Shown here piece after piece: positions 6,411 to 52,953 of a stretch of 64,000 nt of DNA (its first letter is position 1; every line of letters starts with the position of its first letter). The translations under genes were made by a program, and so were the position numbers. Origin of the DNA: an uncultured Candidatus Saccharibacteria bacterium (GTDB lineage: Bacteria > Patescibacteriota > Saccharimonadia > Saccharimonadales > CAZARM01); the NCBI GenBank assembly GCA_964487615.1, contig CAZARM010000001.1, forward strand, positions 32,226 through 96,225, written 5' to 3'. Below the pieces are notes generated by a model. It saw nothing but the letters and a program-made list of their open reading frames with translations. It did no database searches and was not told the origin of the DNA.

Positions 6411-7298
6411 ATGCTGTCTAAAACAAAAAAGGTCTCTGAGCATAAACGCAACGGACGCCACCATAGCCACACGACTCAGTACAAACAGATTTACTGGCCG
6501 TATTTGCCTTTGGTTGTAGTGGCCATATTTATGTTGGCTATTTCTATCCTGCCCAATCGTGGCACCAGCCACACGCTAGCTTATGCTACCGAAATGAGCC
6601 GGGAAACACTGCTCCAAGCCACTAATGGCCAACGTGCCAGCAACAATAAGGAAAACCTCACCTTGGAAGCTGAGCTAAACAAAGCCGCTCAAGCCAAAGC
6701 AGAAGACATGGCCAAGCGAAACTACTGGTCACATCAAACACCAGAGGGTAAAGACCCCTGGATCTTTATTGACCAGACCGGATACAAATACTACAAAGCC
6801 GGCGAAAACCTAGCCTACGGCTTCGTGGACAGTGATACGACCGTCAAAGGCTGGATGAATAGTCCCACCCACCGTGATAATTTATTAGACAGTGCATTTA
6901 CCGAAGTTGGCTTTGGCTTTGCCAACGCCAACGATTACCAGAAATCTGGTCCCGAAACTATCGTAGTCGCAATATATGGTCGACCCCAGAGTCTAGGCAG
7001 CACTGTATTAGCCGCTCAACCCTCGTCGACCAATCCTCCAGTCACCGCCTCACCGAGCAAAGAAGTAACCAAAATTGAAGTTTTAAGTGGTAGTAAACTG
7101 ACCTGGGCACCGTTTGCAGTCGGCATTTTGAGTGGTGTAGCAGTCACTGGCTTGTTACTCAATCACGGTCTGCGTCTGCGCAAACTGCTTCGCAAGGGCG
7201 AGAGGTACTTTGTAGCTCACCCCATCCTAGACATCGCACTCATAGTTATTGCCTTCTCCTGTGTAGAACTCACCCGCACGATCGGCTATATCCATTAG
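6411..7298 (+). CDS. CAP/SCP/YkwD-domain protein with an N-terminal TM anchor and C-terminal hydrophobic segments
   Basis: CAP signature pieces: NG.RA...L.....L..AAQ..A.DMA..NYWSH.TP.G.....I...GY.....GENLAYG...W.NSP.HR.NLL...FTEVGFG. Confidence 0.7.
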   Translation: MLSKTKKVSEHKRNGRHHSHTTQYKQIYWPYLPLVVVAIFMLAISILPNRGTSHTLAYATEMSRETLLQATNGQRASNNKENLTLEAELNKAAQAKAEDMAKRNYWSHQTPEGKDPWIFIDQTGYKYYKAGENLAYGFVDSDTTVKGWMNSPTHRDNLLDSAFTEVGFGFANANDYQKSGPETIVVAIYGRPQSLGSTVLAAQPSSTNPPVTASPSKEVTKIEVLSGSKLTWAPFAVGILSGVAVTGLLLNHGLRLRKLLRKGERYFVAHPILDIALIVIAFSCVELTRTIGYIH

Positions 7299-7335
7299 GG
7301 TATATTTTTAAACGGAAGCAGTTTATACTGCTGGT

Positions 7336-7473
7336 ATGACAAAGAAAACCAAACAACAGAGAGAACTAACTAAACGCGACCTGGCTTTTTACGTCGCCGT
7401 TATCTTATTGCTGGGTCCTTTAGGTGTGGTAATCGTCCTTTATGACTACCACCGCTATATCAAGAAAACCTAG
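7336..7473 (+). CDS. Small 45-aa predicted membrane protein (MTKKTKQQRELTKRDLAFYVAVILLLGPLGVVIVLYDYHRYIKKT)
   Basis: ATG and stop read directly from the sequence. One clear TM helix. It is below the ORF-track size cutoff. Its stop overlaps the convergent dnaE end by a few bases. Confidence 0.3.
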   Translation: MTKKTKQQRELTKRDLAFYVAVILLLGPLGVVIVLYDYHRYIKKT

Positions 7474-10400
7474 TGCACTTTGATATTGTCAGTGCCAACA
7501 ACGGAAGCTAGCTCGGCAATGCTATCGTCACTCGCGGATAATCTCATGGGCAACTTAATGATCTGTTTTTGATCGGCTGGGCCGAGGACTAAAACTACTT
7601 CTGTGTTGCCTTTATGCAAATCAATCTTTTCTTTTAGTCCTAGCAGCATCTGCTGATCTTCACTGCTCGTTAAGCGAATATAAACTCTTGGGTTGGCTTG
7701 CAATGACGGCTCCATTGGCAGAATAGCTGATGCGGATTTTTTAGCCTTACGTGTCTTGAGGGCTTTCCGTTCTTTGCCGGTTGCTTGATATGCAGCAGCC
7801 TGGTCTAGTGTGACTTCACGGGCATCATCAACCATGACCTTTACGTCCTGAATTAGGTTGCCGTCGCGGTCTTTGGCGTTAACTTTGCCTTTGACTATCA
7901 CTACTCGATCTCGTTCCCATATGCCAGTGGTTTGCTGGTAGATGCTTGGAAAAAGGATGAATTCTATCTCATGGAAGCTGTCGGCTACCTTAACAAAAGC
8001 CATTTTTTGGCCATTCTTGGTGGTGATTTCACGCACATCAACAATGGCACCTCCTACAGTTACGCTACTACCGTCGTGCTCCGCCCGTAGTTGATTGAGC
8101 GGTACAGTCTGTTCAGCAAGCAAAGTCTCAAACGACTGTAGCGGGTGTTGGGATAGGTAAATGCCCAGTAATTCGCGCTCCCAGACCAACAACTCTCGCT
8201 CGGGAATTTCTGACCCTGGCTTTTCGATAATCAGCTGAGGTCGGACTTGGTCTTCGATAAGGTTGCCAAAAAGATCTGTCTGTCCGCTAGAGGCTTGCTT
8301 CTGCAAGCGATTAGCAAAGGCCAAAAACACATCAAGATTATGTAGCAGATGTGACCTACTACCAAAGCGATCGAAGGCTCCAGCCTTCATCAGGCTTTCC
8401 AGCGCTTTGCGGTTAACCACCCGAGGGCTGACTTTGCTAAAGAAATCTTCCAGTGACTCAAATGGCCCTACCTGACGTGCTCGCAAGATCTCTTCTACAG
8501 CTGCCGTTCCAACATTCTTGATGGCATTCATCCCGAAGCGTATCTGGTTGGTTTTAGGTACAACTGCAAACTCCACAAAAGATTCATTGACATCCGGCGG
8601 CAAAACCTCCACACCGATGTGCTTGCATTCAGCTATCTCAATTGCCAACCGATCGGTGTCATCGTAGTCGCTAGTCATCAGAGCCGCCATAAATGCCGCT
8701 GGATAGTGAGCTTTTAGATAAGCTGTTTGGTAAGCAATTAACCCATAACATGCGGCATGGGATTTGTTAAAACAATAGGCCGCAAAATCTTCTAGCTGCT
8801 TCCAGAATTTCTCCATCAAGGTTTTGTCGATTTCTGAGTGTTTCTGGCCGCCCTCGATCATCTTGTCTTTCATTTTGGCCATAAGTTCGGCATTTTTCTT
8901 GCCAATGGCTTTACGTAGCGTGTCTGCCTCACCGCCACTAAAACCACATACTTCTTTGGATATCTGCATAACCTGCTCCTGGTAAACTAGAACGCCGTAG
9001 GTATTTTTTAGAGCGTTTTCCATGCTGATATGCGGATAACTGATTTGGCGCAAACCATGCTTACGACCGATGAATTCATCGATAAACTGCATCGGTCCTG
9101 GGCGGTAAAGGGCTACCATGGCGATGATGTCTTCAAAGACCGTGGGCTTGAGGTCTTTGAGATAGCGTTTCATGCCAGCTGATTCCAGCTGAAATACACC
9201 AGTAGTGTCACCTCGCTGGAAAAGTTCGTAAGTAGCCTTATCGTCCAACGGGATCTTGTTGACATCAATGTCATCACCGTAAACTTTGCGTACTATGCGT
9301 AGCGCATTTTTAATAATAGTCAGGTTGCTCAAACCCAAGAAGTCCATTTTAAGTAGTCCTAAATCCTCGATCGGGCCCATGGAGTACTGGGTAGCTACGA
9401 CGCCCTTCTGAGCCATTTCCATTGGTGCAAATTTCACAATTTCGTCAGGTGCAATCACTACGCCAGCAGCATGGACGCCATGGCTGCGGATAGTGCCTTC
9501 GAGTCGCAAAGCTTGGTCTAGCACCGTACGGCTAATCTCGTTGGACTCGTATTCGGCCCTAAGGTCGGGGTCATCCTTCAGTGATTTCTCCAGTGGAATG
9601 TGACGACCCTGGAACGGAGCAGGAATCATCTTGGCCAAACGGTCAGCGTCAACGTAAGGAACTTGCAATACTCTAGCTACATCACGTACAGCGTTGCGAG
9701 CAAACATTCGGCCAAAGGTGGCAATATTGGCGACCCGATCAGCGCCATACTTATCGATACAGTACTGGATGACTTCGTTGCGCCGAGTATCCTGGATATC
9801 GATGTCGATATCTGGCATGCTGATACGGTCGGGATTAAGAAAACGCTCAAACAGCAGGTCGTACTGAATAGGATCTAGTTCGGTTATCTTGAGCCCATAT
9901 GCAATAATTGAGCCAGCTGCGGATCCACGACCTGGACCAAAAACGATGCCATTGTTCTTGCCCCAGTTAATAAAGTCTTGAATGATCAAGAAATAGCCGT
10001 TAAAGCCCATGTTATCAATGACGTTTAATTCAAATCCTGCCCGGGCGACCATTTCAAACGGCAGAGTTTTCTGGGCTTCTTCGCGGCTAAGATCGGCTGC
10101 CTGAAGTTCGCTGACGCCACCATAGCGCCAGGCCAAGCCACGATAAACCAGGTCGTGCAGATATGACTTCTCTGTCTTGCCTCTGGGGACGGGAAACTTG
10201 GGGATCAGAATTTTTCCTAAGTCTAACTCAACGTGACAACGGTCGGCTACTAGCTTAGTATTGGTTATTACATCCGGGTTATCTTTACCCCAACGCTTGA
10301 TGATTACTTGAGGCGTTTCAACATGGAGCGGAAAATCCTTTAGTGACATGCGCTTTTCGTCACTCAAGAACGATCCTGTACCAACGCACAATAAGATTTC

Positions 10401-29741: not shown

Positions 29742-30443
29742 ATGCGTATCATTGGGCACCGCGGTGCTGCCGGATTAGAGTTGGAAAACACCTTGGCTAG
29801 TCTTCAGCGAGCCAAAGATCTGGGTGTTGACGGTGTTGAGTTTGATGTCCGCCTGACAGCTGATCGCCAACTAGTGCTATGTCACGACGGTGACCTGTCC
29901 CGAACCGCTACAAAGTCAGCCAAAATCGAAGAGATGAATCTAGCAGAATTAAAGCAGATACCGCTCAAAAATGGTGAGCCAATACCAACGCTTGATGAGG
30001 CCTTAGACTGCCTGGGTCAAACCCTGGCAGTAGTCGAAATGAAAGTTAGCGGTTGTGCAGACGAACTGCTGGCAGTTCTGGATAAACATCCTAATACCCC
30101 AGTTATCATTGCCACCTTTCTGCATGAATTCGCGGCCGAGCTGGAAGTAAAACGCCACGGACTAACCGTCTTTTTGGCAGAATACACCCGCCCGACCGAG
30201 ATCATCCATTTTGTGCGTACGGCTAAGGCGGATGGGATTGACCTCAATGCCTGGGTACTCAATCCCTTGACCTATTGGCTTGCCAAGAGGCGAGGCCTAG
30301 ATATCATGGTCTATACCGTCAACCGGCGTTTCATCGGCTGGTTTATCAAAAAGCTCTATCCAGATGTGGCAATCTGCACCAACCACCCCGAACGATTCGT
30401 CAAGTCCGGAAAAGCCACAAATTCAGCATCGACCAGGCGCTAA
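29742..30443 (+). CDS. Glycerophosphodiester phosphodiesterase (GDPD family)
   Basis: IGHRGAAGLELENT...GVDGVEFDVRLTADRQLVLCHD N-terminal catalytic motif. Confidence 0.8.
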   Translation: MRIIGHRGAAGLELENTLASLQRAKDLGVDGVEFDVRLTADRQLVLCHDGDLSRTATKSAKIEEMNLAELKQIPLKNGEPIPTLDEALDCLGQTLAVVEMKVSGCADELLAVLDKHPNTPVIIATFLHEFAAELEVKRHGLTVFLAEYTRPTEIIHFVRTAKADGIDLNAWVLNPLTYWLAKRRGLDIMVYTVNRRFIGWFIKKLYPDVAICTNHPERFVKSGKATNSASTRR

Positions 30444-30912
30444 CGATTGCGGCAACCAAGTATTGGGCTTGGGTCCAGTCACGGTTCAATAAACATAGAA
30501 TCGCGGCCCCCACATTTATAACAACGGCGAAGATGTACCAGCCCATCGGCCGATCAACCAAGCCGTTCCACAAGTAGCCAATTGCCATCACCAGCAACCA
30601 GAACGCTCCCAGGTGTGCAATTAGCCGATAAGCCCATTCGACTTTGATATAGAACACGATGCCAGAGATGGCAATGCCAACAGTAATTGGCACCAGCCAG
30701 GCCAAGAATATATTACGCATCTGTCGAACCTTCAGCGGCATTACCCTGTACATATATCCTAGACCAATCAATGACAGCGTGAACCAAACAGGATTAATGG
30801 TTTTTCGTTGGTGATAATCAGTGGCAATGAAGCCGGCTGTAACTAGTACCGCCCACAGCAAGTAAACCCGGGCGCGAGTTTCTATGAACAAATGCTTACC
30901 AAACGGCGACAT
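30400..30912 (-). CDS. Polytopic membrane protein of unknown function, 171 aa with 4-5 TM helices
   Basis: Start set at MSPFGK (ATG 30912); the ORF-track extension overlaps the divergent FNR-like gene. Highly hydrophobic, aromatic-rich. Confidence 0.5.
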   Translation of the reverse strand: MSPFGKHLFIETRARVYLLWAVLVTAGFIATDYHQRKTINPVWFTLSLIGLGYMYRVMPLKVRQMRNIFLAWLVPITVGIAISGIVFYIKVEWAYRLIAHLGAFWLLVMAIGYLWNGLVDRPMGWYIFAVVINVGAAILCLLNRDWTQAQYLVAAIVSAWSMLNLWLFRT

Positions 30913-30939
30913 ATGTTCATAGTATACTATTGAGATATT

Positions 30940-31644
30940 ATGCGCGTAACATTTGATCATTCTAGTCCCACGGCCGACCACATTCGGACCTATTACTTCA
31001 AACCGGAGCGGGAGATGCGCTACACGGCTGGTCAATTTATTGAGCTCACCCTGCCCCATGACAATCCGGACAAGCGCGGGCAGAAACATTGGTTTACCCT
31101 GTCCTCCTCGCCTAGTGAAGAACTGCTTAGTATTACCACTAAATTCGCTACTGACCACATTAGTACCTTCAAGCAAACCTTGGCAGCCCTTAAGCCGGGC
31201 CAAGAGGTCGCCATGAGCGATGCCATGGGTGACTTTGTGCTACCAAAGGATACCTCCCTTCCGCTGGTGTTCATCGCCGGTGGCATTGGCGTTACACCGT
31301 TTCATAGCATGATCCAGTGGCTAATCGATACCCAGGAACACCGGACGATTCAGCTGCTTTACGCCGCCAATGTAGTTGAAGAAGTAGCTTTTAGGGATAT
31401 ATTTGCCAAGTATGGCCTGCCAGTCACCATAATTTTGAGCAAACCACCCGTAAACTGGAAAGGCCAATCCGGCCGTCTGGATGCCAAAAAAATTCTGGAG
31501 CTGGCTCCTGATGTAGACCGCAAGCTGTACTACCTATCAGGTCCCGAACCAATGGTCGAAGCTCTAGTCGAAGGCATGAAGGATGCCGGCGTCGATAAAA
31601 AGCGCTTGGTCGGTGACTACTTCCCCAACTACACGGGCGTATAG
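30940..31644 (+). CDS. FNR-family flavoprotein oxidoreductase (ferredoxin-NADP reductase / cytochrome-b5-reductase-like FAD and NAD(P) binding)
   Basis: HWFTLSSSP (R-x-Y-S/T-x-x-S FAD motif analogue), GGIGVTPF (NAD(P)-binding GxGxxP) and YYLSGPEPM (CGPxxM analogue). Confidence 0.7.
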   Translation: MRVTFDHSSPTADHIRTYYFKPEREMRYTAGQFIELTLPHDNPDKRGQKHWFTLSSSPSEELLSITTKFATDHISTFKQTLAALKPGQEVAMSDAMGDFVLPKDTSLPLVFIAGGIGVTPFHSMIQWLIDTQEHRTIQLLYAANVVEEVAFRDIFAKYGLPVTIILSKPPVNWKGQSGRLDAKKILELAPDVDRKLYYLSGPEPMVEALVEGMKDAGVDKKRLVGDYFPNYTGV

Positions 31645-31668
31645 ATTAAACACTCAACTTGAACTGGT

Positions 31669-32100
31669 TTACTCCGTAACTACGATCGTGGCTTTCATAT
31701 TGGGGTGAAGCTCACAGTGGTAAGCAAAAGTACCCGCAGCATCAAATGTCATGGTGTACATTTCGCCTTGGTCAAGCGTGCCACTATCTAGCATGCCGCC
31801 CCCATCAGAGGTCACAGTGTGGGCTGTAGAATCTTTATTGGTCCAGGTGACAGTAGCACCCTTCTTGACGGTCAGTTTGGTAGGGGAAAAGGCAAAACCG
31901 GAGATGGTGACTGAGTTGGATGAAGTAGAATCATTCGAGGTGGCTGGAGCCGTTTCGTGCGCAGAATGGTCTTCCGGGGCAGTTGCGGTGCTCGAACTGG
32001 CAGTCTGTGCAGGCTCATCTTTCCGCGTGGCCAGATATACCCCGCCAAGACCCAGAATCGCTACCACGACAACAATGATTATTATCACAGGTTTGCTCAT
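31669..32100 (-). CDS. Cupredoxin (plastocyanin/amicyanin-like type-1 blue copper protein) with an N-terminal TM anchor
   Basis: GATVTWTNKDSTAHTV...FAYHCELHPNMKA supplies the His/Cys/His/Met copper ligand spacing. Ser/Thr-rich linker. Confidence 0.75.
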   Translation of the reverse strand: MSKPVIIIIVVVVAILGLGGVYLATRKDEPAQTASSSTATAPEDHSAHETAPATSNDSTSSNSVTISGFAFSPTKLTVKKGATVTWTNKDSTAHTVTSDGGGMLDSGTLDQGEMYTMTFDAAGTFAYHCELHPNMKATIVVTE

Positions 32101-32205
32101 ATCCCCTCCTTGATTACTGACTAATCATACCATCAAATGTAGTCAAGTCTAAAGAACCCTTAAAGTATGAGAAAATAGAAGTCTAAAGGGGGAGTTTTTA
32201 AACAT

Positions 32206-32598
32206 ATGGATAAGAATAAATGGGTAGTGGCGGCATTAATTGCCGTTGGTGCACTTGTGGCGCTTGTAGCAGTATTGCCCAAAACCAAACAAAGCAGTAC
32301 GGCTGCTAACATCACCCCGCCCACAGTTACCAGAATTACCGCCGAAGAAGTAGCCAGCCACGATAGTCGTGATGATTGTTGGACCGTGATTAATGGCAAA
32401 GTCTACAACATCACCGGCTTTATCTCCAGCCACCCCGGCGGGGACGAAATCTTGCGCGCCTGCGGTATTGATGCCACCAGCTTGTTCACCCAGCGCGAAA
32501 CCAGCAGTGGACAACCTGTCGGCTCGGGGACGCCTCACTCTAGCAGCGCCGCCAGCCAGCTAGCTAGCCTTCAAATCGGTGTGCTGTCATCTAACTAA
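32206..32598 (+). CDS. Cytochrome b5-like heme-binding domain protein with an N-terminal TM anchor
   Basis: Exact match to the cyt-b5 heme signature [FY]-[LIVMK]-x-x-H-P-[GA]-G in FISSHPGG. Context HDSRDDCWTVINGKVYNITGF...DATSLF. Second His in TPHSS. RBS aaaggggga sits before the ATG. Confidence 0.75.
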   Translation: MDKNKWVVAALIAVGALVALVAVLPKTKQSSTAANITPPTVTRITAEEVASHDSRDDCWTVINGKVYNITGFISSHPGGDEILRACGIDATSLFTQRETSSGQPVGSGTPHSSSAASQLASLQIGVLSSN

Positions 32599-33037
32599 CC
32601 GACCGCTCTGAGATATACTTAACAGTTTCGATATAGTGCTGCAGTTGATCTGTAGGAATTTCGGCTAGCCAGTTATCCATCTTTTGAGCAATAATTTCCT
32701 CAGTGTGCGTCAGCATACGTTGCCCGCGAGGACTTAAGATAACGTGCCTCGACCGACGGTCGCGACGCTGGATCTTTTGCTTGACTAGTTTTTGCTGACC
32801 AACCTTGACCATCAATGCTGTGACTTGGGGCTGCGAAACATCCAGGCGTTTAGCAATCTCGGACAAGCTCAAGCCCTCTTCGGGTCCTTCGCCGATCACG
32901 CCCAACAGCAGCCACTCCATCATCGTAAGTTTCAAATAATCAAGTTGGTCGGCCACTAGTGCTCTTAGCACTCTATCGGCTCTGGAATGGAGCAGACAGG
33001 CCTGGTACATCGTAATTATTTTGCCCTGGTCAGCCAT
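32591..33037 (-). CDS. MarR-family transcriptional regulator
   Basis: wHTH region LSLSEIAKRLDVSQPQVTALMVKVGQQKLV...DRRSRHVILSPRG. Confidence 0.8.
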   Translation of the reverse strand: MADQGKIITMYQACLLHSRADRVLRALVADQLDYLKLTMMEWLLLGVIGEGPEEGLSLSEIAKRLDVSQPQVTALMVKVGQQKLVKQKIQRRDRRSRHVILSPRGQRMLTHTEEIIAQKMDNWLAEIPTDQLQHYIETVKYISERSVS

Positions 33038-33107
33038 ACCATCACAGCTTGTAGAAAAAACTTCAACTTGTAAAGTAAAATTCCGCCTTTATTGCTGTTA
33101 GTAAAAT

Positions 33108-34076
33108 TTACTGCGAAACTTCAGATGCTTTAGCCCTGGCATGAGGCTCTAGGTACTGGCGAATCATTAAAGCAGCTGTGGCTCCCTCGCCGGCTGCACT
33201 AGCGATTTGCATGGTGGCGCCACTGCGCACATCACCAGCTGCAAACACACCCGGCATCGTGGTTTCTAAGTGATTGTTGGTCTTGATCATACCGACTTCA
33301 TCTAACTCCACCGCACTACTTTTTAAGAATTGCGTATTCGGCAACAAGCCAATAAATACAAATACACCGTCGGTTTCAAAACTAACTTTTTTGCTTGTCA
33401 GGGCATCGGTAGCGCTGACCGAAACCACTTTGTTGTCAGCTCCGCCAACAATTTCATCGACGGGCGTATTGAAGTGGACGGTAATTTTGTCGGCGTGTTG
33501 CTTGAGCTCTTGTTGCAGCACATCAGAAGCTCTGAAAGCCGGACCGCGAACCAACATGTCAATTCTGGTCGCAAAACGAGTTAAGAAGATTGCTTCCTGA
33601 ACAGCCGAGTTACCACCGCCGACGACCACTAAGCGCTTATCTCGGTAAAAAGCTCCGTCACAGGTGGCACAGTAGTGCACTCCGCGGCCGTAATACTGCT
33701 GCTCGCCCGGAATGCCTAGTTTTTTGTAATCACTGCCGGTGGCTATCAGTACGGCTCGAGCATGCATGTCGCCTTCCGAGGTCTTGAGTAGCTTGTAGTC
33801 GCCTTTGTCCTCAATGCTCATCACTTCGCCCAAGCGAATGTCTGCCCCAAAGCGTTCGGCTTGTTTCTCCAGAGCCTGACCGAGTTCTAAGCCGGCAATG
33901 CCGTCGGCAAAACCTGGATAGTTATCTACCCAGTCGGTTATCGAGGCCAAGCCGCCGATGACACCTTTTTCAAATAACACGGTATCTATATCTTCGCGTG
34001 TGGTATAGATGGCCGCACTTAAAGACGCTGGGCCAGCCCCCACCATCACCACATCATGCGTTTCTATATCAGCCAT
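33108..34076 (-). CDS. trxB: Thioredoxin-disulfide reductase
   Basis: VVMVGAGPAS FAD motif, redox-active CATCDG, and GGGNSA NADPH motif. Confidence 0.9.
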   Translation of the reverse strand: MADIETHDVVMVGAGPASLSAAIYTTREDIDTVLFEKGVIGGLASITDWVDNYPGFADGIAGLELGQALEKQAERFGADIRLGEVMSIEDKGDYKLLKTSEGDMHARAVLIATGSDYKKLGIPGEQQYYGRGVHYCATCDGAFYRDKRLVVVGGGNSAVQEAIFLTRFATRIDMLVRGPAFRASDVLQQELKQHADKITVHFNTPVDEIVGGADNKVVSVSATDALTSKKVSFETDGVFVFIGLLPNTQFLKSSAVELDEVGMIKTNNHLETTMPGVFAAGDVRSGATMQIASAAGEGATAALMIRQYLEPHARAKASEVSQ

Positions 34077-34124
34077 CTTAATTTATCCATTCTATCATTT
34101 GCAAAGTCTACTTTCTACGCTGCA

Positions 34125-34244
34125 CTTAGTGCTTTTCAGGGATGCAGTACAAGGCAGGAGCGAGGAACGCAAAGGAGCGGTATTCAAATACCCTGACTGC
34201 GTACCGGAGCTCCTAGCGCCGTAATGCGCCCTGAAAAGTACTAA
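34125..34244. promoter_or_regulatory. Candidate regulatory region upstream of trxB-marR. It has a 17-bp inverted repeat (cttagtgcttttcaggg ... ccctgaaaagtactaag, one mismatch) flanking an 86-nt spacer that contains the palindrome GGAGCTCC.
   Basis: Read directly from the sequence. The right arm overlaps the glutaredoxin stop codon. Confidence 0.35.
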
Positions 34245-34492
34245 GCCGCGACTGCAGGGGCGAGGCGGGCTAAGTTGAAGCCAACAACAACTTCTCTAGT
34301 ATTATCTTCTTTGGTAACCACGGTAACCGGCACTGTCAGGGCGCCGCTCAATTCCAACGCTTCAGCCTGACGCTCGGGATGCTGGTCTATATTGACTTCC
34401 TCGTAAGCATGGCCTTTGCTGCCTAACCATTTTTTGACCATTACGCAGTAAGCGCAGGTGTTGGTAGTGAAGATAGTGATGTTTTTGGCCAT
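34241..34492 (-). CDS. Glutaredoxin-like protein (NrdH/Grx family)
   Basis: 83 aa with CAYC redox motif near the N-terminus. Confidence 0.75.
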   Translation of the reverse strand: MAKNITIFTTNTCAYCVMVKKWLGSKGHAYEEVNIDQHPERQAEALELSGALTVPVTVVTKEDNTREVVVGFNLARLAPAVAA

Positions 34493-47990: not shown

Positions 47991-49355
47991 TTGGGCTATA
48001 CTTGGTGCTATATGGATGAACAGGCCGTTGATGAGATTCAGGCTAAGCCGACGGATGTGCTTGAAGTAGCTAAGGGCGTACTGGAAATGAACGACGAAGG
48101 TACGCACACTACACCGACTAATAGTGGGTTGTACCCGCACCAGTGGCTATGGGACAGTTGCTTTGTAGCGATTGGCCTCCGGCACTTGGATATTGACCGA
48201 GCCAAGACCGAGATTTTGAGTTTGCTTCATGGCCAGTGGGCCAACGGTATGATGCCAAATATGATTCTTAGTACACACAGACATCACCGGGACAGTAATC
48301 TCTGGCGTAGCTGGCTGAACCCCAATGCCCCAGACCATGTCAGTACCAGCGGCATAACGCAGCCGCCAATGCTTGCAGAAGCGGTAGTGCGCGTGGGCGA
48401 AAAACTGAACAAAACCGAGCGTCGGACTTGGTATAAATCGGTATTCCCGGCGCTACTGGCTTACCACGAATGGCTGTACCGTGAGCGCGATCCTCACTCC
48501 GAAGGGCTAACACTACAGATCCATCCATGGGAAACGGGAATGGACAATACACCGCCCTGGATGAGTGAGCTACACGACCACCAGTTAGCTTGGTGGATCA
48601 CGGTTGTCGATAAGCTGAGGCTAGGTCATATATTTAAAGTCTTTCGCCGAGACAAGGTAATCCCAGCCGAACAGCGGTTGGGAACGATTGAGGCATTAGC
48701 GCTCTATAGCACGCAGCGCCGCTTGCGCCGCAAGAACTATGACATTAGCCGAATTTTGTCACACTCCTTGTTTGCCATTGAAGATGTAAACTTCAACTCT
48801 ATCCTGATACGGGCCAATCATCACGTCCGGGACATTGCCAAGTTTCTGCGCAAAGAGTTACCTGAAGAATTAGACGATAGCATGCACAAGACCGAAAAAG
48901 CTCTGGAGCAGCTATGGGATCCCTATTCTAATCAGTACTACTCCCGGGAATTTGTGTCTCACCGCTTACTCAAAACACCGTCCCTGGGAACACTAATGCC
49001 ACTCTACGCCGGCAGCATCACCAAGGAGCGGGCAGGCGTGCTAGTCAAGCTACTGGAGGACGCCAACCAGTTCGGCAGCCACTATCCAGTCCCAACTGTG
49101 CCAATTAATTCAGAGTGGTTTAAGCCAACCGGCTACTGGCAAGGGCCGACTTGGGTCAACACCAACTGGATGATCATCGATGGGCTGAAACGCTATGGTT
49201 TTGCTGACCACGCGGCAGCGCTAGCAGAAACGACTCTGGAATTAGTTGAACGGTCTGGTTGTAGTGAGTACTTCAGTCCGCTTGACGGATCACCCGCCGG
49301 CGCTCCCAACTTCAGCTGGACCGCCGCTCTGAGCATAGATTTGTTATCGAAATAA
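47991..49355 (+). CDS. Six-hairpin glycoside hydrolase (GH63/MGH-like; putative glucosyl-/mannosyl-glycerate or similar hydrolase)
   Basis: YPHQWLWDSCF and GYWQGPTWVNTNWM motifs typical of the (alpha/alpha)6 GH63/GH37-like catalytic domain. Alternative start ATG 48012. Confidence 0.6.
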   Translation: MGYTWCYMDEQAVDEIQAKPTDVLEVAKGVLEMNDEGTHTTPTNSGLYPHQWLWDSCFVAIGLRHLDIDRAKTEILSLLHGQWANGMMPNMILSTHRHHRDSNLWRSWLNPNAPDHVSTSGITQPPMLAEAVVRVGEKLNKTERRTWYKSVFPALLAYHEWLYRERDPHSEGLTLQIHPWETGMDNTPPWMSELHDHQLAWWITVVDKLRLGHIFKVFRRDKVIPAEQRLGTIEALALYSTQRRLRRKNYDISRILSHSLFAIEDVNFNSILIRANHHVRDIAKFLRKELPEELDDSMHKTEKALEQLWDPYSNQYYSREFVSHRLLKTPSLGTLMPLYAGSITKERAGVLVKLLEDANQFGSHYPVPTVPINSEWFKPTGYWQGPTWVNTNWMIIDGLKRYGFADHAAALAETTLELVERSGCSEYFSPLDGSPAGAPNFSWTAALSIDLLSK

Positions 49356-49637
49356 CAGGATGCCCAGGATTATGGCTCCGTCCATACCAAACCACAGAGC
49401 CTGGGTGAGAATCAGCGGTTTAATTTTGTGGACCAGGGCATAGCTTAAGAAGATTATGCCTATCAGGCTGTAGCCTAACCAGGTCGCCAGCGAAAGGCTA
49501 GTGACATCATGTGTGGTATAAATCTTCCAGATTTGTGGCAAGCTGGAGAAAGGATGAATGACAGCGGCTCCTAACATGGCCTTGTCTATCAGCCGATTGG
49601 AAGTTTTCTTGATATGAAGGAGGGGGTGAGTACGCAT
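49344..49637 (-). CDS. SemiSWEET / PQ-loop small sugar transporter (3 TM)
   Basis: 97 aa with three hydrophobic helices and the PQ motif in TM1 (SSLPQIWKIY). Confidence 0.6.
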   Translation of the reverse strand: MRTHPLLHIKKTSNRLIDKAMLGAAVIHPFSSLPQIWKIYTTHDVTSLSLATWLGYSLIGIIFLSYALVHKIKPLILTQALWFGMDGAIILGILLFR

Positions 49638-49642
49638 AAGGA

Positions 49643-50803
49643 CTAGAAGTTGGCGAGCCGGTTGCCCTTGCGCCAGGTCTTAAGGGCTTGTTTATATGGT
49701 TCAAAATTGCGGAAAATCGAGAGGTCAGCTCGACGACGCACCAGCCAACCTCGGTAGCCGCTAATCACGCCTTTTTGAGTCTGCAATACTGCCCAATTTG
49801 GCCCGATCGGAACTACATAGATTGGATGCCAAGCCCGGTAAGTTACTGGCTGCTTGCCGGCCTTTTCGCTTAGTAGATTGCGGGCCACGAACTTGGCATC
49901 ATGAAGCGCTGTTTGCGCCATGCCACTAAAAGGCGTAGCGGCGTTGTCACCCAACACGTATATATCCGTTTGTCCTTGAGCTAACATATACTGATCTACC
50001 TTGACCCGGCCACGTTCCAGCTCAAAGATATCCGGGTGCTCAGCATAAAAACTGACGGCTTTGCTGCCAGCCGTCCACACTATGAGATCAGCACTCAAAT
50101 CATCACCCTCCAGGCACAGTTTGCCTGGTTCGCAGCTATTAACTTTGGTATTTAACTTCAACTTAACACCCAGGTGACGTAAACGGGCTTCGGCCTTCGC
50201 CGAAGCCTTTTCGTGCAACATCGGCAACACCCGTGGAGCACCTTCGACAAGAGTAACTTCCACTTTTACAACCGGCTTGTCTTCACGCTCGGCGATTAAT
50301 TTGGCAAAGTTCTGAAGCTCTCCGGCTAACTCAACACCAGAAGCACCGGCACCGACAACGGCGACTGAAGCTTGCTTGTGATGAGCGCGGAATAGTCTGG
50401 CTAACTCATGGCGCAAGCGGATGGTGCTGGCAATGGTGTCCATGCTTTGGCTGTGCTCATCCATGCCTTTTAGGCCGAAATAATTCACCACGTTGCCCAT
50501 AGCTAGTACCAGCTTGTCGTAGCCATAAACTTCACCCATTTCACTGACCACCCGCTGTTTTAGGGGATCCAGGCCCACGACTTTGTCTAAGACGAGCTCG
50601 ACATTATGAGTATGCTTGAAGATATCGCTCAGTGGTATAACGACTTCAAGCGGCGAGTGCCCCGTGCCAGCCCGATATAACGCACCGTGGTATTCAAAAT
50701 TTGGCCCTTGGGAGATCAGTGTAATTTTAAAGCCTGGCTTGTTAGCCAGCTCTAATGCTGTTTTGACCCCGGCAAAACCGCCGCCCACCACGACAATCTT
50801 CAT
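49643..50803 (-). CDS. ndh: Type II NADH dehydrogenase (NDH-2) / FAD-dependent pyridine nucleotide-disulfide oxidoreductase
   Basis: N-terminal KIVVVGGGFAG and second Rossmann VAVVGAGASGVELAGEL. 386 aa. Confidence 0.8.
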   Translation of the reverse strand: MKIVVVGGGFAGVKTALELANKPGFKITLISQGPNFEYHGALYRAGTGHSPLEVVIPLSDIFKHTHNVELVLDKVVGLDPLKQRVVSEMGEVYGYDKLVLAMGNVVNYFGLKGMDEHSQSMDTIASTIRLRHELARLFRAHHKQASVAVVGAGASGVELAGELQNFAKLIAEREDKPVVKVEVTLVEGAPRVLPMLHEKASAKAEARLRHLGVKLKLNTKVNSCEPGKLCLEGDDLSADLIVWTAGSKAVSFYAEHPDIFELERGRVKVDQYMLAQGQTDIYVLGDNAATPFSGMAQTALHDAKFVARNLLSEKAGKQPVTYRAWHPIYVVPIGPNWAVLQTQKGVISGYRGWLVRRRADLSIFRNFEPYKQALKTWRKGNRLANF

Positions 50804-51861
50804 ACACTATCCTCATCGGTCGGTCGGTCAAGCAACAAGGGCTCAATACCTGCTCCTTGGTCAGCAATTTTGACAATGTCTTTGTCGATCCGTCCCAGTT
50901 CTTTTGATGCACTATTGTAGTGTCCTACCGTGGCGCCTAAACTAACACCGACTTTTTTGAAGTAGCCATCGTAATTAATCAGGTGCCGCGTTAACTGCTC
51001 GATGTTTTTGCGGATGACTTCGGTGTCTTTTTGGATTTCCAAACTGCGCAATTGCTGGACGATAATCTGCAGAGTTGCCGCTAATGTACTGGGTCCTACG
51101 ATGGTGACGTGCTTGTCGACAGCTGCATATTGCATAAGGTCACGTCCGTTAACACCGCCGGCACCAACTTTATTGGCCAGTAAGTCATAGAATATGGCCT
51201 CTGAAGGGATAAACATCAGGGCTTGTTCCAAGGTGCCCTTGCGTGGCTGTACATATTTGGATGTTTCGTCGATGCGCTTTTTGAGGTCTTCTTTGAATAA
51301 TTTCTCTAAAGACACTCGGGTGTCGCCCTTGGCTTCTACTAGTCGGTTGTAATTCTCCAAACTAAATTTGCTGTCAATCGGCAATACTCGGCCGTCAAGC
51401 TTGATCACGGCATCGACAATCAGTCCTTCAGCTAGTTTGTATTGAAGCTCGAATGAGCCCGGTGGTAATAGATTTTGCAAAATTTGCTCTAGGTAAAACT
51501 CGCCCAGGACACCACGCTGTTTAGGGTTGGCCAGTACGTTTTGCAACACTTTGAGTTCTCCTGCGATGTCGCCGACTTGCTGGTTGGTACGCTCTAGGTT
51601 GGTTAGTTTCTGGGTTACGTCCTTGATGATGGTGGCGCTTTCCTTAAACTGGCTAGCCATTTGCTGGTTAGATTTGTCCAAACGCTCAGTCAGATGGCTC
51701 TGTATACCATCTTTCAGCTGATGCACCGATTCAGTCAATGTAGTCAGGTCCTGTTTTAGCATCAGGGCACTGCCGGAATCATTGGTATTGCTGCTTTTGC
51801 GCAAAAACATGAATAACAAAACCGCATTTAGTACCGCCAAGATAATAACTGCAACAATCAT
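50800..51861 (-). CDS. rmuC: DNA recombination protein RmuC
   Basis: N-terminal TM, long coiled coil and C-terminal RmuC nuclease-like region (GVLGEFYLEQIL...FIPSEAIF). Confidence 0.75.
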   Translation of the reverse strand: MIVAVIILAVLNAVLLFMFLRKSSNTNDSGSALMLKQDLTTLTESVHQLKDGIQSHLTERLDKSNQQMASQFKESATIIKDVTQKLTNLERTNQQVGDIAGELKVLQNVLANPKQRGVLGEFYLEQILQNLLPPGSFELQYKLAEGLIVDAVIKLDGRVLPIDSKFSLENYNRLVEAKGDTRVSLEKLFKEDLKKRIDETSKYVQPRKGTLEQALMFIPSEAIFYDLLANKVGAGGVNGRDLMQYAAVDKHVTIVGPSTLAATLQIIVQQLRSLEIQKDTEVIRKNIEQLTRHLINYDGYFKKVGVSLGATVGHYNSASKELGRIDKDIVKIADQGAGIEPLLLDRPTDEDSV

Positions 51862-51894: not shown

Positions 51895-52953
51895 CTACTC
51901 CTGACTGCCAGGACTGTAAGCCAAGAAGCAAGGAGCATTTGCGGGATCACCTTCAATAGTCGTCTGGCCGGCAGGGTCGCAGAGCGGCAAATTGGAGCAG
52001 TCGAGCGGTGTGTTTGTATCTTTTGGCAAGGCATTGCCAAAAAGGTCGTAAGCAATGATCCCTTCTACGTCGTCTTTCAAGCACGACGACGGCTGATAAT
52101 AGGCGCTGTACGTCAGTGCCTGTTCTTTGGTGGCCTGTGGATAGTCATGGTCACTATTACATGGGGTTTCTGCGCAGCTGATTACGGCTGACTCATTATG
52201 AATAAAGTGATGCGCAGCATTGATGCTCAGCCCGACCACGACCACACCCACCACCAGCAATATTGGCTGCAAGCTTAGGAAGCGGCGGCTCTTGCCAGAT
52301 TCGTGCAGTTCGGGGATTAGGTCACTCATGGCGATATAGAGCAAGAACCCGGCGCTCAAGCCAAGCAACACGCCGATGGGCAGATCTTTGGAGCTGCCAA
52401 GAGCAAATGTCAGTACTGCTGCTGCTGTGGTAGCCAGGGCGCTCAGAGCATTGACCAACAGCACCTTGCCGCGACTCATGCCTTTATGAAGTAACAAACC
52501 AAAATCACCAATCTCTTGAGGAATCTCATGTGCCGCCACGGCAATAGTAGTGACGATGCCAGTTGGTACGCTAACTAGAAAGGCCACTGCAATGGCCACG
52601 CCGTCCAGGGCATTATGAATTGTATCTCCAGCAATGATGAGCGCCGTGGTGGGATCCCCTTGCCCTTCGTGCTGATGATGGTGATGAAACCAGTGCAAAA
52701 ACCGCTCGGCAAAGAAAAAAATTATTATACCTAATAGTGTGGACATCAGTAATGTGTCGCTGCTAGCTTGTTCCAACCCATCTTTGAGCAAGTCCAAAAA
52801 GACTGCGGCTAACAACGCACCGGCCGCAAAGGGGGTGGCGTACTGGGCAAGTTTCCTAGCTACTTTCTCGCTGCCAAGCATCAGCACACCGCCAATCAGC
52901 GAAAATAACCCGCCCACCAACGAGAAAAAGATAATATGTCCGTAATTAGCCAT
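51895..52953 (-). CDS. zupT: ZIP-family divalent metal transporter (ZupT-like) with a Cys-rich C-terminal extension of about 95 aa
   Basis: His-rich loop HWFHHHHQHEGQ, HNALDGVAIA and HEIPQEIGDFG ZIP signature helices. The tail holds 8 Cys (CAETPC...CLKDD...CSNLPLCDPAG...CFLAY). Confidence 0.8.
   Translation of the reverse strand: MANYGHIIFFSLVGGLFSLIGGVLMLGSEKVARKLAQYATPFAAGALLAAVFLDLLKDGLEQASSDTLLMSTLLGIIIFFFAERFLHWFHHHHQHEGQGDPTTALIIAGDTIHNALDGVAIAVAFLVSVPTGIVTTIAVAAHEIPQEIGDFGLLLHKGMSRGKVLLVNALSALATTAAAVLTFALGSSKDLPIGVLLGLSAGFLLYIAMSDLIPELHESGKSRRFLSLQPILLVVGVVVVGLSINAAHHFIHNESAVISCAETPCNSDHDYPQATKEQALTYSAYYQPSSCLKDDVEGIIAYDLFGNALPKDTNTPLDCSNLPLCDPAGQTTIEGDPANAPCFLAYSPGSQE

Follow-up and report, generated by a model that had tools for sequence, protein, structure and literature searches.

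A Saccharibacteria module of an orphan six-helix membrane protein, an FNR-type flavoprotein and a heme or copper carrier predicted to face outward: a candidate split NAD(P)H:carrier reductase

Introduction

Saccharibacteria and the other bacteria of the candidate phyla radiation (CPR) are generally called fermentative and non-respiring. Many CPR bacteria encode isolated redox proteins at their surface without a known electron donor. According to a preprint, 185 CPR genomes have genes of the cytochrome b5 family (PF00173) within 10 kb of ferric-reductase (PF01794, 'pFre') genes, for which its authors propose a membrane complex specific to CPR and of unknown function (bioRxiv 10.1101/2021.11.17.468889). 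In a 2025 paper, cupredoxins of Patescibacteria were proposed to donate electrons to NirK, and the electron donor to these cupredoxins is given there as unidentified. Here we analyze a cluster of redox genes at positions 30400-34492 of a 64,000-nucleotide stretch of DNA from an uncultured Candidatus Saccharibacteria bacterium (contig CAZARM010000001.1 of assembly GCA_964487615.1, positions 32,226 to 96,225; hereafter the window), which encodes a cytochrome b5, a cupredoxin, a flavoprotein of the ferredoxin-NADP reductase (FNR) superfamily and a small polytopic membrane protein, which we call c30.

Among the loci that we compared with the window (cited below by L numbers), L067 and L081 fit the b5/pFre pattern, and the module of the window differs from it in using c30 rather than a PF01794 protein. 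Neither c30, nor the flavoprotein of 234 amino acids (aa), nor the cupredoxin alternative is described in the part of that preprint accessible to us, and our searches of the accessible literature returned no description of c30, of the strict linkage between it and the 234-aa flavoprotein, of a c30/FNR/cupredoxin module or of an alternation between b5 and cupredoxin. As judged from its homologues, the module is specific to Saccharibacteria and built around the orphan c30. Our best model of it, to which we assign a probability of about 45%, is a split transmembrane NAD(P)H:carrier reductase that resembles the NADPH oxidases (NOX).

Results

We compared about 120 loci: b5 served as the anchor for 80 (from species genomes) and c30 for 34, and three more (L115-L117) come from close relatives of the window. 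The c30 and FNR genes were adjacent in 38 of the 39 informative loci, usually in divergent orientation and sometimes as an operon or translationally coupled; in L083, cupredoxin, FNR and c30 form an operon in which one junction is a gap of 2 bp and the other an overlap of 4 bp. Beside this pair stood a carrier gene of one of two kinds. Every c30-anchored locus whose flank reached 2.1 kb or more (17 loci) had the cupredoxin form, as did two shorter ones, and the cupredoxin gene lay 1-2 kb from c30. The b5 form was found in at least seven loci (L041/L043, L046, L049 and L115-L117), in which c30 lies beside FNR and b5, the latter two on one strand with 10-13 bp between them, and no cupredoxin was found in the flanks, which extended over 5-10 kb to either side. 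These b5-form loci include the closest relatives of the window, whose FNR proteins are ~67-70% identical to its own. Conversely, b5 occurred in none of the 34 c30-anchored loci and cupredoxin in none of the 80 b5-anchored ones, and the window was the sole locus with both carriers by the module. Since they are never found together beside the module outside the window, b5 and cupredoxin look like alternatives, not successive steps, in their genomic distribution. The conserved unit is thus c30 plus the flavoprotein, always with a carrier predicted to face outward (b5 or cupredoxin), and c30 is its most tightly linked component. The cupredoxin was not found in the closest relatives, where FNR adjoins b5 (L115-L117); the simplest reading of the window is that its cupredoxin gene lies, in reverse, within an FNR-b5 operon.

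The same genes are found together in dozens of independent relatives, so that their clustering exceeds chance. The module occupies a variable slot between conserved PPase/GDPD and TrxB-Grx-FKBP genes, and it is also found away from trxB in L081-L083. Whatever genes intervene, the backbone keeps the order FKBP, Grx, TrxB ... GDPD/PPase, GAPDH. The features of the window are as follows.

30400..30912, minus strand: c30, orphan six-helix membrane protein, 170 aa, the flavoprotein's obligate partner
30919..30930, strand not applicable: 12-bp perfect palindrome ATAGTATACTAT, inside the 27-bp c30/FNR intergenic region
30940..31644, plus strand: FNR-superfamily flavoprotein, 234 aa, NAD(P)H/FAD, predicted cytoplasmic (PF00175)
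31669..32100, minus strand: type-1, amicyanin-like cupredoxin, predicted membrane-anchored, 143 aa (PF13473, PF00127)
32206..32598, plus strand: bis-His cytochrome b5 (b558 type), predicted membrane-anchored, 130 aa (PF00173)
32591..33037, minus strand: MarR-family regulator (PF12802)
33108..34076, minus strand: probable thioredoxin reductase TrxB (PF07992), backbone neighbor
34241..34492, minus strand: glutaredoxin/NrdH-like CxxC protein (PF00462), backbone neighbor

All seven open reading frames (ORFs) listed here had been described in an earlier note, made from the sequence alone, and were confirmed; six have a Pfam match above the gathering threshold, the exception being c30 (Pfam scores are judged throughout against the gathering cut-off of each family, and NCBIfam scores against equivalog cut-offs). 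The profile check of b5, the FNR-like protein and the cupredoxin returned PF00173, PF00175 and PF00127, all above cut-off, the motifs quoted in the note are all present in the window proteins, and the polytopic ORF at 30400-30912 is indeed divergent from the reductase across 27 bp. The host phylum that the note had inferred, Saccharibacteria, is borne out by the taxonomy of the named homologues, which belong mostly to Candidatus Saccharibacteria or Saccharimonadales. Its picture of a seven-gene redox island survives as regards the genes and their domains and fails as regards their unity: the backbone is conserved with or without the module, and TrxB and Grx cannot be counted as specific parts of it.

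The b5 protein matched PF00173 with 65.5 bits (cut-off 23.7, E = 4.3e-18), and its H76 (in HPGG), H111 (in GSGTPHS/TPHSS), C58 and C86 were invariant in 26 homologues. A profile of the family found many b5 matches among solved structures (1e-13 to 8e-19), the best being to 1CXY, an exported protein (cytochrome b558) from Ectothiorhodospira vacuolata (8e-19); in the alignment both histidines and both cysteines correspond, H111 being equivalent to the His of GEPHSS. The AF2 model, in which most of residues 41-100 have a predicted local distance difference test score (pLDDT) of ~90 or more, gave a Foldseek template modeling (TM) score of 0.88 against 1CXY (the best target-normalized value, at 40% identity) and of 0.81 against rat OM b5. 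We conclude that this protein is a classical bis-His cytochrome b5 of the bacterial, exported, disulfide-bearing (b558) kind, with a predicted heme site. At its N-terminus a hydrophobic helix of 19 residues precedes a low-complexity linker rich in Ser, Thr, Ala and Pro, and the protein is predicted to be anchored facing outward; the domain is placed outside the cell because fusions in L009, L013 and L048 put it after a seventh helix. With both axial histidines invariant and best matches among classical clade-2 b5 proteins, the earlier identification of a true bis-His b5, as opposed to a Tyr-ligated or membrane-associated progesterone receptor (MAPR) variant, is upheld. Its companion statement, that a b5/reductase pairing is a eukaryotic trait rare in bacteria, is not: the nearest solved relative is the bacterial b558, and relatives of this b5 occur in at least 176 species-level genomes, mostly of Saccharibacteria.

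Giant secreted proteins with 4-7 tandem b5-like domains among their repeats were also encountered, in a metagenome-assembled genome (MAG) of Actinomycetes and in one of Acidobacteriota (L077:6770-11116 and L062:4402-6393). The tandem copies of L077 carry HSGG, HPGG or HAGN, not uniformly HPGG.

The cupredoxin matched PF13473 with 48.7 bits (cut-off 27) and PF00127 with 45.9 bits (cut-off 21.2), and its H94, C129, H132 and M135, spaced C-x2-H-x2-M, make up a complete predicted type-1 site, which confirms the full His/Cys/His/Met ligand set reported before. The 15 distinct cupredoxin homologues found beside c30/FNR agree with it in anchor, linker and ligands, the spacing being C-x2-H-x3-M in a single case, and the protein is predicted to be anchored facing outward. 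Its best NCBIfam match was amicyanin TIGR02657, at 50.4 bits, which does not reach the equivalog cut-off of 110.2, and its likeness to amicyanin is confined to the spacing of the ligand loop.

The flavoprotein matched PF00175 with 46.9 bits (cut-off 22, E = 4.8e-12), and FAD_binding_8 and NAD_binding_6 below cut-off (18.2 against 22 and 18.9 against 22.2 bits, respectively). The window protein shows HWFTLSS at residue 50, GGIGVTP at 114 and SGPEPM at 200, and the consensus of the family reads (R/H)WFT(L/I)SSSP, GGIG(V/I)TP, SGPEPM and a C-terminal DYFPxY. Orthologues are uniformly ~234 aa long. The NCBI protein for this gene (P0287) has 209 aa and starts too late; the start at 30940 is supported by an N-terminus conserved in all orthologues, and the c30/FNR intergenic region is therefore only 27 bp long. 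No signal peptide, transmembrane segment or hydrophobic N-terminal segment was found, and since it lacks an export signal, the flavoprotein is predicted to reside in the cytoplasm, where it would use NAD(P)H.

A PDB search with this protein returned NqrF (1.8e-10), BenC (2e-8), MmoC (2e-8) and the b5 reductase 2eix (4e-7), and its best NCBIfam matches, Hmp, Hcr, GbcB, BenC and Fre, all scored below cut-off. An FNR-type flavoprotein, as the earlier note had proposed, is thus supported. The further assignment to the cytochrome b5 reductases is contradicted by the generic FNR matches that score ahead of them and by both of their diagnostic motifs: the family has Phe in place of Tyr in RxY(T/S)xx(S/N), and in at least 90% of its members Ser in place of the cysteine of CGPxxM. 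The GxGxxP motif for NAD(P)H and the FNR match, which the flavoprotein does show, are common to the whole FNR superfamily.

No relative of c30 was found in Pfam, NCBIfam or the PDB. It has more than 235 homologues, all of ~170 aa and limited to Saccharibacteria-type genomes, and a search of 1.84 billion representative proteins with the c30 profile returned only 47 clusters, nearly all of them stand-alone proteins of ~170 aa or fragments, with no fusion found. AF2 models it with very high confidence (pLDDT 95.4) as a bundle of six helices. Invariant residues comprise six tryptophans, one per helix, Met54 and Met65, and several Asn, Gln and Ser; M58 and M162 are near-invariant. Invariants are concentrated in the loops predicted to be cytoplasmic (R13, M54, M65, N116, D120, W125, Y126 and R169). 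Weak Pfam signals (E ≤ 10) in 28 members showed nothing consistent, PF01794 being absent; PDB sequences gave only noise with the c30 profile; and a test for an internal 3+3 repeat was negative. We also considered a Trp/Tyr hopping ladder across c30, whose conserved aromatics lie at all membrane depths, and dropped it on energetic grounds, as hole hopping would need an oxidant of ~1 V, which neither type-1 copper nor b5 should supply. The 3' ends of c30 and GDPD overlap convergently by 44 bp (window 30400-30443).

The start of c30 lies 27 bp from the ATG of FNR on the opposite strand, and within this region (examined over window 30882-30938) the 12-bp palindrome carries TATACT on both strands. 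The palindrome probably represents overlapping divergent -10 boxes, giving leaderless or very short-leader transcripts. The homologous intergenic regions (L081-L107) hold TGCTATA-like extended -10 motifs ~10-20 nt before the c30 start; the absence of room for a ribosome-binding site after the -10-like motif suggests that c30 mRNAs are leaderless or have a very short leader. A MarR operator was rejected as an explanation of the palindrome, which is not kept in the homologous regions, these sharing the extended -10-like motifs instead.

The MarR protein (PF12802, 37.9 bits against 27, E = 2.1e-9) is probably the regulator of the module. A MarR gene usually accompanies it in both its b5 and cupredoxin forms: it is convergent with b5 in L115-L117, a homologue adjoins the cupredoxin or lies near it in L085, L089, L092 and L105, and MarR genes are also near in L081 and L082. 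The 3' ends of b5 and MarR overlap convergently by 8 bp in the window (32591-32598), and in L115-L117 they again overlap by 1-4 bp or are separated by 0-1 bp. TrxB (PF07992, 171 bits; TIGR01292, 334 bits, just under the cut-off of 343.45) has CATC at residue 136, and the glutaredoxin-like protein (PF00462, 61.2 bits against 22.9, E = 1.1e-16) has CAYC at residue 13 and reaches no NCBIfam equivalog cut-off.

Several further proteins were noted around these genes. L089 encodes a 400-aa thioredoxin reductase fused to an N-terminal glutaredoxin-like CxxC domain (L089:1725-2927), a 230-aa secreted helical protein without assigned function between MarR and cupredoxin, and a second, cupredoxin-like protein of 152 aa after the cupredoxin; proteins of a size similar to the 230-aa one (228 and 234 aa) stand beside MarR in L081 and L082. 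A cytoplasmic protein of 285-289 aa without a Pfam match lies beside the module in L041 (10403-11260, minus strand) and L087 (4201-5070, minus strand; here downstream of FNR) and is absent from the window.

Across the loci examined, b5 is repeatedly accompanied by an FNR-type dehydrogenase, by a polytopic membrane protein or by the two together, and several such combinations, not homologous to each other, were seen. In ~25 loci it is divergent from a six-helix membrane protein of ~210 aa without a Pfam match, which has two invariant histidines in the motifs LLHP and IFxHAL (for example L026:6459-7085, minus strand, with b5 at 7124-7531, plus strand) and is fused to b5 in L009:9305-10402, L013:9185-10258 and L048:9185-10258. 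This protein is a candidate heme-b transmembrane partner of b5, and the positions of its histidines would suit a heme near the outer face. In ~19 loci b5 stands at the end of a copper island, which comprises CopA (a P-type ATPase of the HMBD type), a YHS/TRASH::FNR fusion rich in His, a small secreted protein, two or three DUF305 proteins and DUF3105, with HxlR or CsoR regulators nearby (L026:305-7531 in CP011211.1; similarly L008, L012, L017, L023-L030, L036, L040 and L045). The YHS/TRASH::FNR fusion, which lies upstream of b5, is 35-38% identical to the window flavoprotein. The copper islands would point towards copper chemistry for the terminal acceptor. Finally, in L067:9881-11597, b5 is followed after a 1-bp gap by a complete NOX-like protein of 435 aa (Ferric_reduct, FAD_binding_8 and NAD_binding_1).

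The window was also searched for the ~210-aa partner protein, CopA, DUF305, DUF3105 and CsoR, and none was present. It encodes an NDH-2-like flavoprotein of 386 aa (Pyr_redox_2; 49643-50803, minus strand), near which lie a PQ-loop protein (49344-49637), RmuC (50800-51861) and a ZIP metal transporter (51895-52953); this gene may be a sign of quinone-dependent redox chemistry in the genome.

Discussion

We favor the split, NOX-like reductase because the three-part pattern recurs, because of the operon structures, and because b5 and cupredoxin exclude each other. In this model, NAD(P)H would be oxidized in the cytoplasm by the flavoprotein, which would dock onto the strongly conserved cytoplasmic face of c30; electrons would then cross the membrane through c30 or aided by it, via a bound quinone or an unconventionally ligated heme, and would reduce, on the outside, a b5 or cupredoxin tethered by its N-terminal helix and low-complexity linker. 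The carrier could in turn hand them to an acceptor outside the cell, be it O2 or a reactive oxygen species, a metal ion (Cu(II) or Fe(III)) or a partner enzyme. What the analysis shows directly are the domain identities, the conservation of the metal ligands, and the linkage and operon structure of the genes; the topology, the direction and route of the electrons, the part played by c30 and the acceptor are inferred.

Several points weigh against this model, and its weak point is c30 itself. The protein has no invariant His or Cys, both the His near residue 33 and H97 being variable, and it therefore lacks a recognizable heme, Fe-S or copper site, so that a quinone or an unconventional heme would be needed. 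Attempts to relate it to heme proteins gave little: its comparison by hhalign with the ~210-aa membrane partner of b5 yielded a probability of 0.3%, and that with the ferric-reductase domain of L067 only 5%, with both heme-binding His positions of transmembrane helix 5 occupied by other residues in c30. Its fold has no informative solved relative, and c30 could equally be a transporter or a mere membrane anchor. Furthermore, each window gene has its own orientation and apparently its own transcription unit, no gene for a terminal electron acceptor lies near the module, b5 is found in the same slot without c30 or FNR within 8 kb in ~14 loci, and the evidence is computational throughout.

The earlier note had proposed a chain lying wholly on the cell surface, from NAD(P)H through the flavoprotein and b5 to the cupredoxin, after the model of eukaryotic b5 reductase and b5. 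A step from b5 to type-1 copper would be energetically downhill by the usual potentials of these families, the FNR, cupredoxin and b5 genes all lie inside 1.7 kb of the window, and the FNR-b5 operon of the close relatives, with both genes on the same strand 10-13 bp apart, shows the link between flavoprotein and b5 to be real. The flavoprotein, however, has neither signal peptide nor transmembrane segment and needs cytoplasmic NAD(P)H, whereas the carriers are predicted to face outward; its resemblance to b5 reductase is no closer than that to the other enzymes of the FNR superfamily, and it lacks the CGP cysteine. The serial step from heme to copper failed the test of co-conservation, the two carriers co-occurring by the module in the window only, and the chain leaves out c30, the most tightly linked gene. 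We therefore regard such a chain as very improbable. Better placed, though still unlikely, is a variant in which c30 would be a quinone-binding anchor and FNR-c30 an NAD(P)H:quinone reductase, whose quinol (perhaps host menaquinone) would reduce the carrier outside, in a manner similar to the Ndh2-quinone-EetA/B-PplA extracellular electron transfer of Gram-positive bacteria; against it, c30 showed no identified quinone-site motif and no homology to known quinone-binding subunits.

Two further explanations we judge about equally likely, each slightly less so than the quinone variant. c30 might be a small channel for copper, another metal or a cofactor, and the flavoprotein a cytoplasmic metal or flavin reductase serving it, so that the module would load or detoxify copper for surface proteins instead of supplying them with electrons. 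Such a role would suit the invariant or near-invariant methionines of c30 (M54, M58, M65 and M162), with an MxxxM at the cytoplasmic end of transmembrane helix 2, as well as the polar invariants inside its membrane part (N40, N133, Q150 and S161); it would also suit the FNR relatives fused to YHS/TRASH in CopA/DUF305/DUF3105/CsoR copper islands that also hold b5, and the presence near the module of DUF1775 (YcnI family) in L081 and of CsoR and a copper ATPase in L082. It sits poorly with the at least seven c30-FNR-b5 loci that have no cupredoxin within 5-10 kb, as copper loading leaves a heme protein in the place of the cupredoxin unexplained, and c30 has neither an internal repeat nor a transporter-family signal. 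The other explanation holds that the trxB-grx slot is a hotspot that gathers independent redox and oxidative-stress genes under MarR control, with no common electron path. The contents of the slot do vary (b5 alone, c30-FNR-cupredoxin or c30-FNR-b5; the additions include a FabA-like protein, another cupredoxin-like protein and the 230- and 289-aa proteins), and the separate orientation of every window gene counts in its favor. Independent genes would nevertheless not be expected to show a near-absolute c30-FNR linkage, operons (FNR-b5; cupredoxin-FNR-c30) and exclusion between carriers, and the module is found away from trxB as well.

To summarize, the split NOX-like reductase remains our preferred reading. 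A bolder claim, which we put forward tentatively and consider rather unlikely, is that c30 and the 234-aa flavoprotein form an unrecognized two-subunit NAD(P)H:carrier oxidoreductase with a new family of membrane fold that has none of the customary heme, Fe-S or Cys residues of an electron relay, constituting a minimal outward chain with interchangeable b5 or cupredoxin, and the 'non-classical' donor to the cupredoxins of Patescibacteria that lack complex III. c30 and the flavoprotein offer a conserved candidate donor for the surface redox proteins of CPR bacteria. If the pair does carry electrons over the membrane, this would account for a possible reduction by these epibionts of oxygen or reactive oxygen species, of copper or iron, or of a partner enzyme, whether on their own surface or where they meet the host, and a new kind of membrane subunit would join the few known transmembrane electron routes. 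The analysis also corrects two impressions that the locus gives at first sight, namely that of a eukaryote-like b5 reductase/b5 pair and that of a single island of all seven genes.

Comparison with known systems

The module is like the NOX/FRE enzymes in combining an FNR-fold NAD(P)H dehydrogenase, here predicted to be cytoplasmic, with a six-helix membrane part that would serve an acceptor outside, and the window flavoprotein matches the dehydrogenase domain of SpNOX (the NOX of S. pneumoniae, PDB 8qq7) at 1e-6. It differs from them in that the dehydrogenase and membrane parts are separate genes, and in that c30 has no PF01794 match and lacks the four heme-ligating histidines. A split arrangement is known from Fre-MsrQ (YedZ) of E. 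coli, in which a soluble flavin reductase and a heme-b membrane protein feed a periplasmic enzyme. The two systems have in common that the FNR-type reductase stands alone, that the polytopic membrane protein is small and that the acceptor lies beyond the cytoplasm, and Fre (PRK08051) is matched by the window flavoprotein at 6e-16, below the NCBIfam cut-off; c30, however, lies outside the ferric-reductase-domain superfamily and has no conserved pair of histidines, and the predicted acceptor in the window is a small heme or copper carrier and not a molybdoenzyme.

Of the carriers, b5 is closest to b558 (1CXY), its best match in both sequence and structure, with the axial histidines and the disulfide cysteine pair in register, and differs from it in being tethered by an N-terminal helix and linker and in an 8-residue insertion before the second His; we know of no established physiological partners of b558. 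With eukaryotic NADH-cytochrome b5 reductase and b5 the module shares an FNR-fold flavoprotein genetically coupled to a bis-His b5 (an operon in the relatives), whereas the membrane is predicted to separate the two window proteins, and the flavoprotein, with Ser for the CGP cysteine, is no nearer to the eukaryotic reductase than to NqrF, BenC and Hmp. The cupredoxin resembles amicyanin and plastocyanin as a single-domain type-1 copper protein with a short C-x2-H-x2-M loop, and is set apart from them by an upstream partner that is not a bc-type complex. In cyanobacteria and algae, plastocyanin and cytochrome c6 replace each other, a copper or a heme protein serving the same upstream partner. 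The heme-or-copper carrier pattern of the module resembles this exchange and may reflect an adaptation to the availability of metals.

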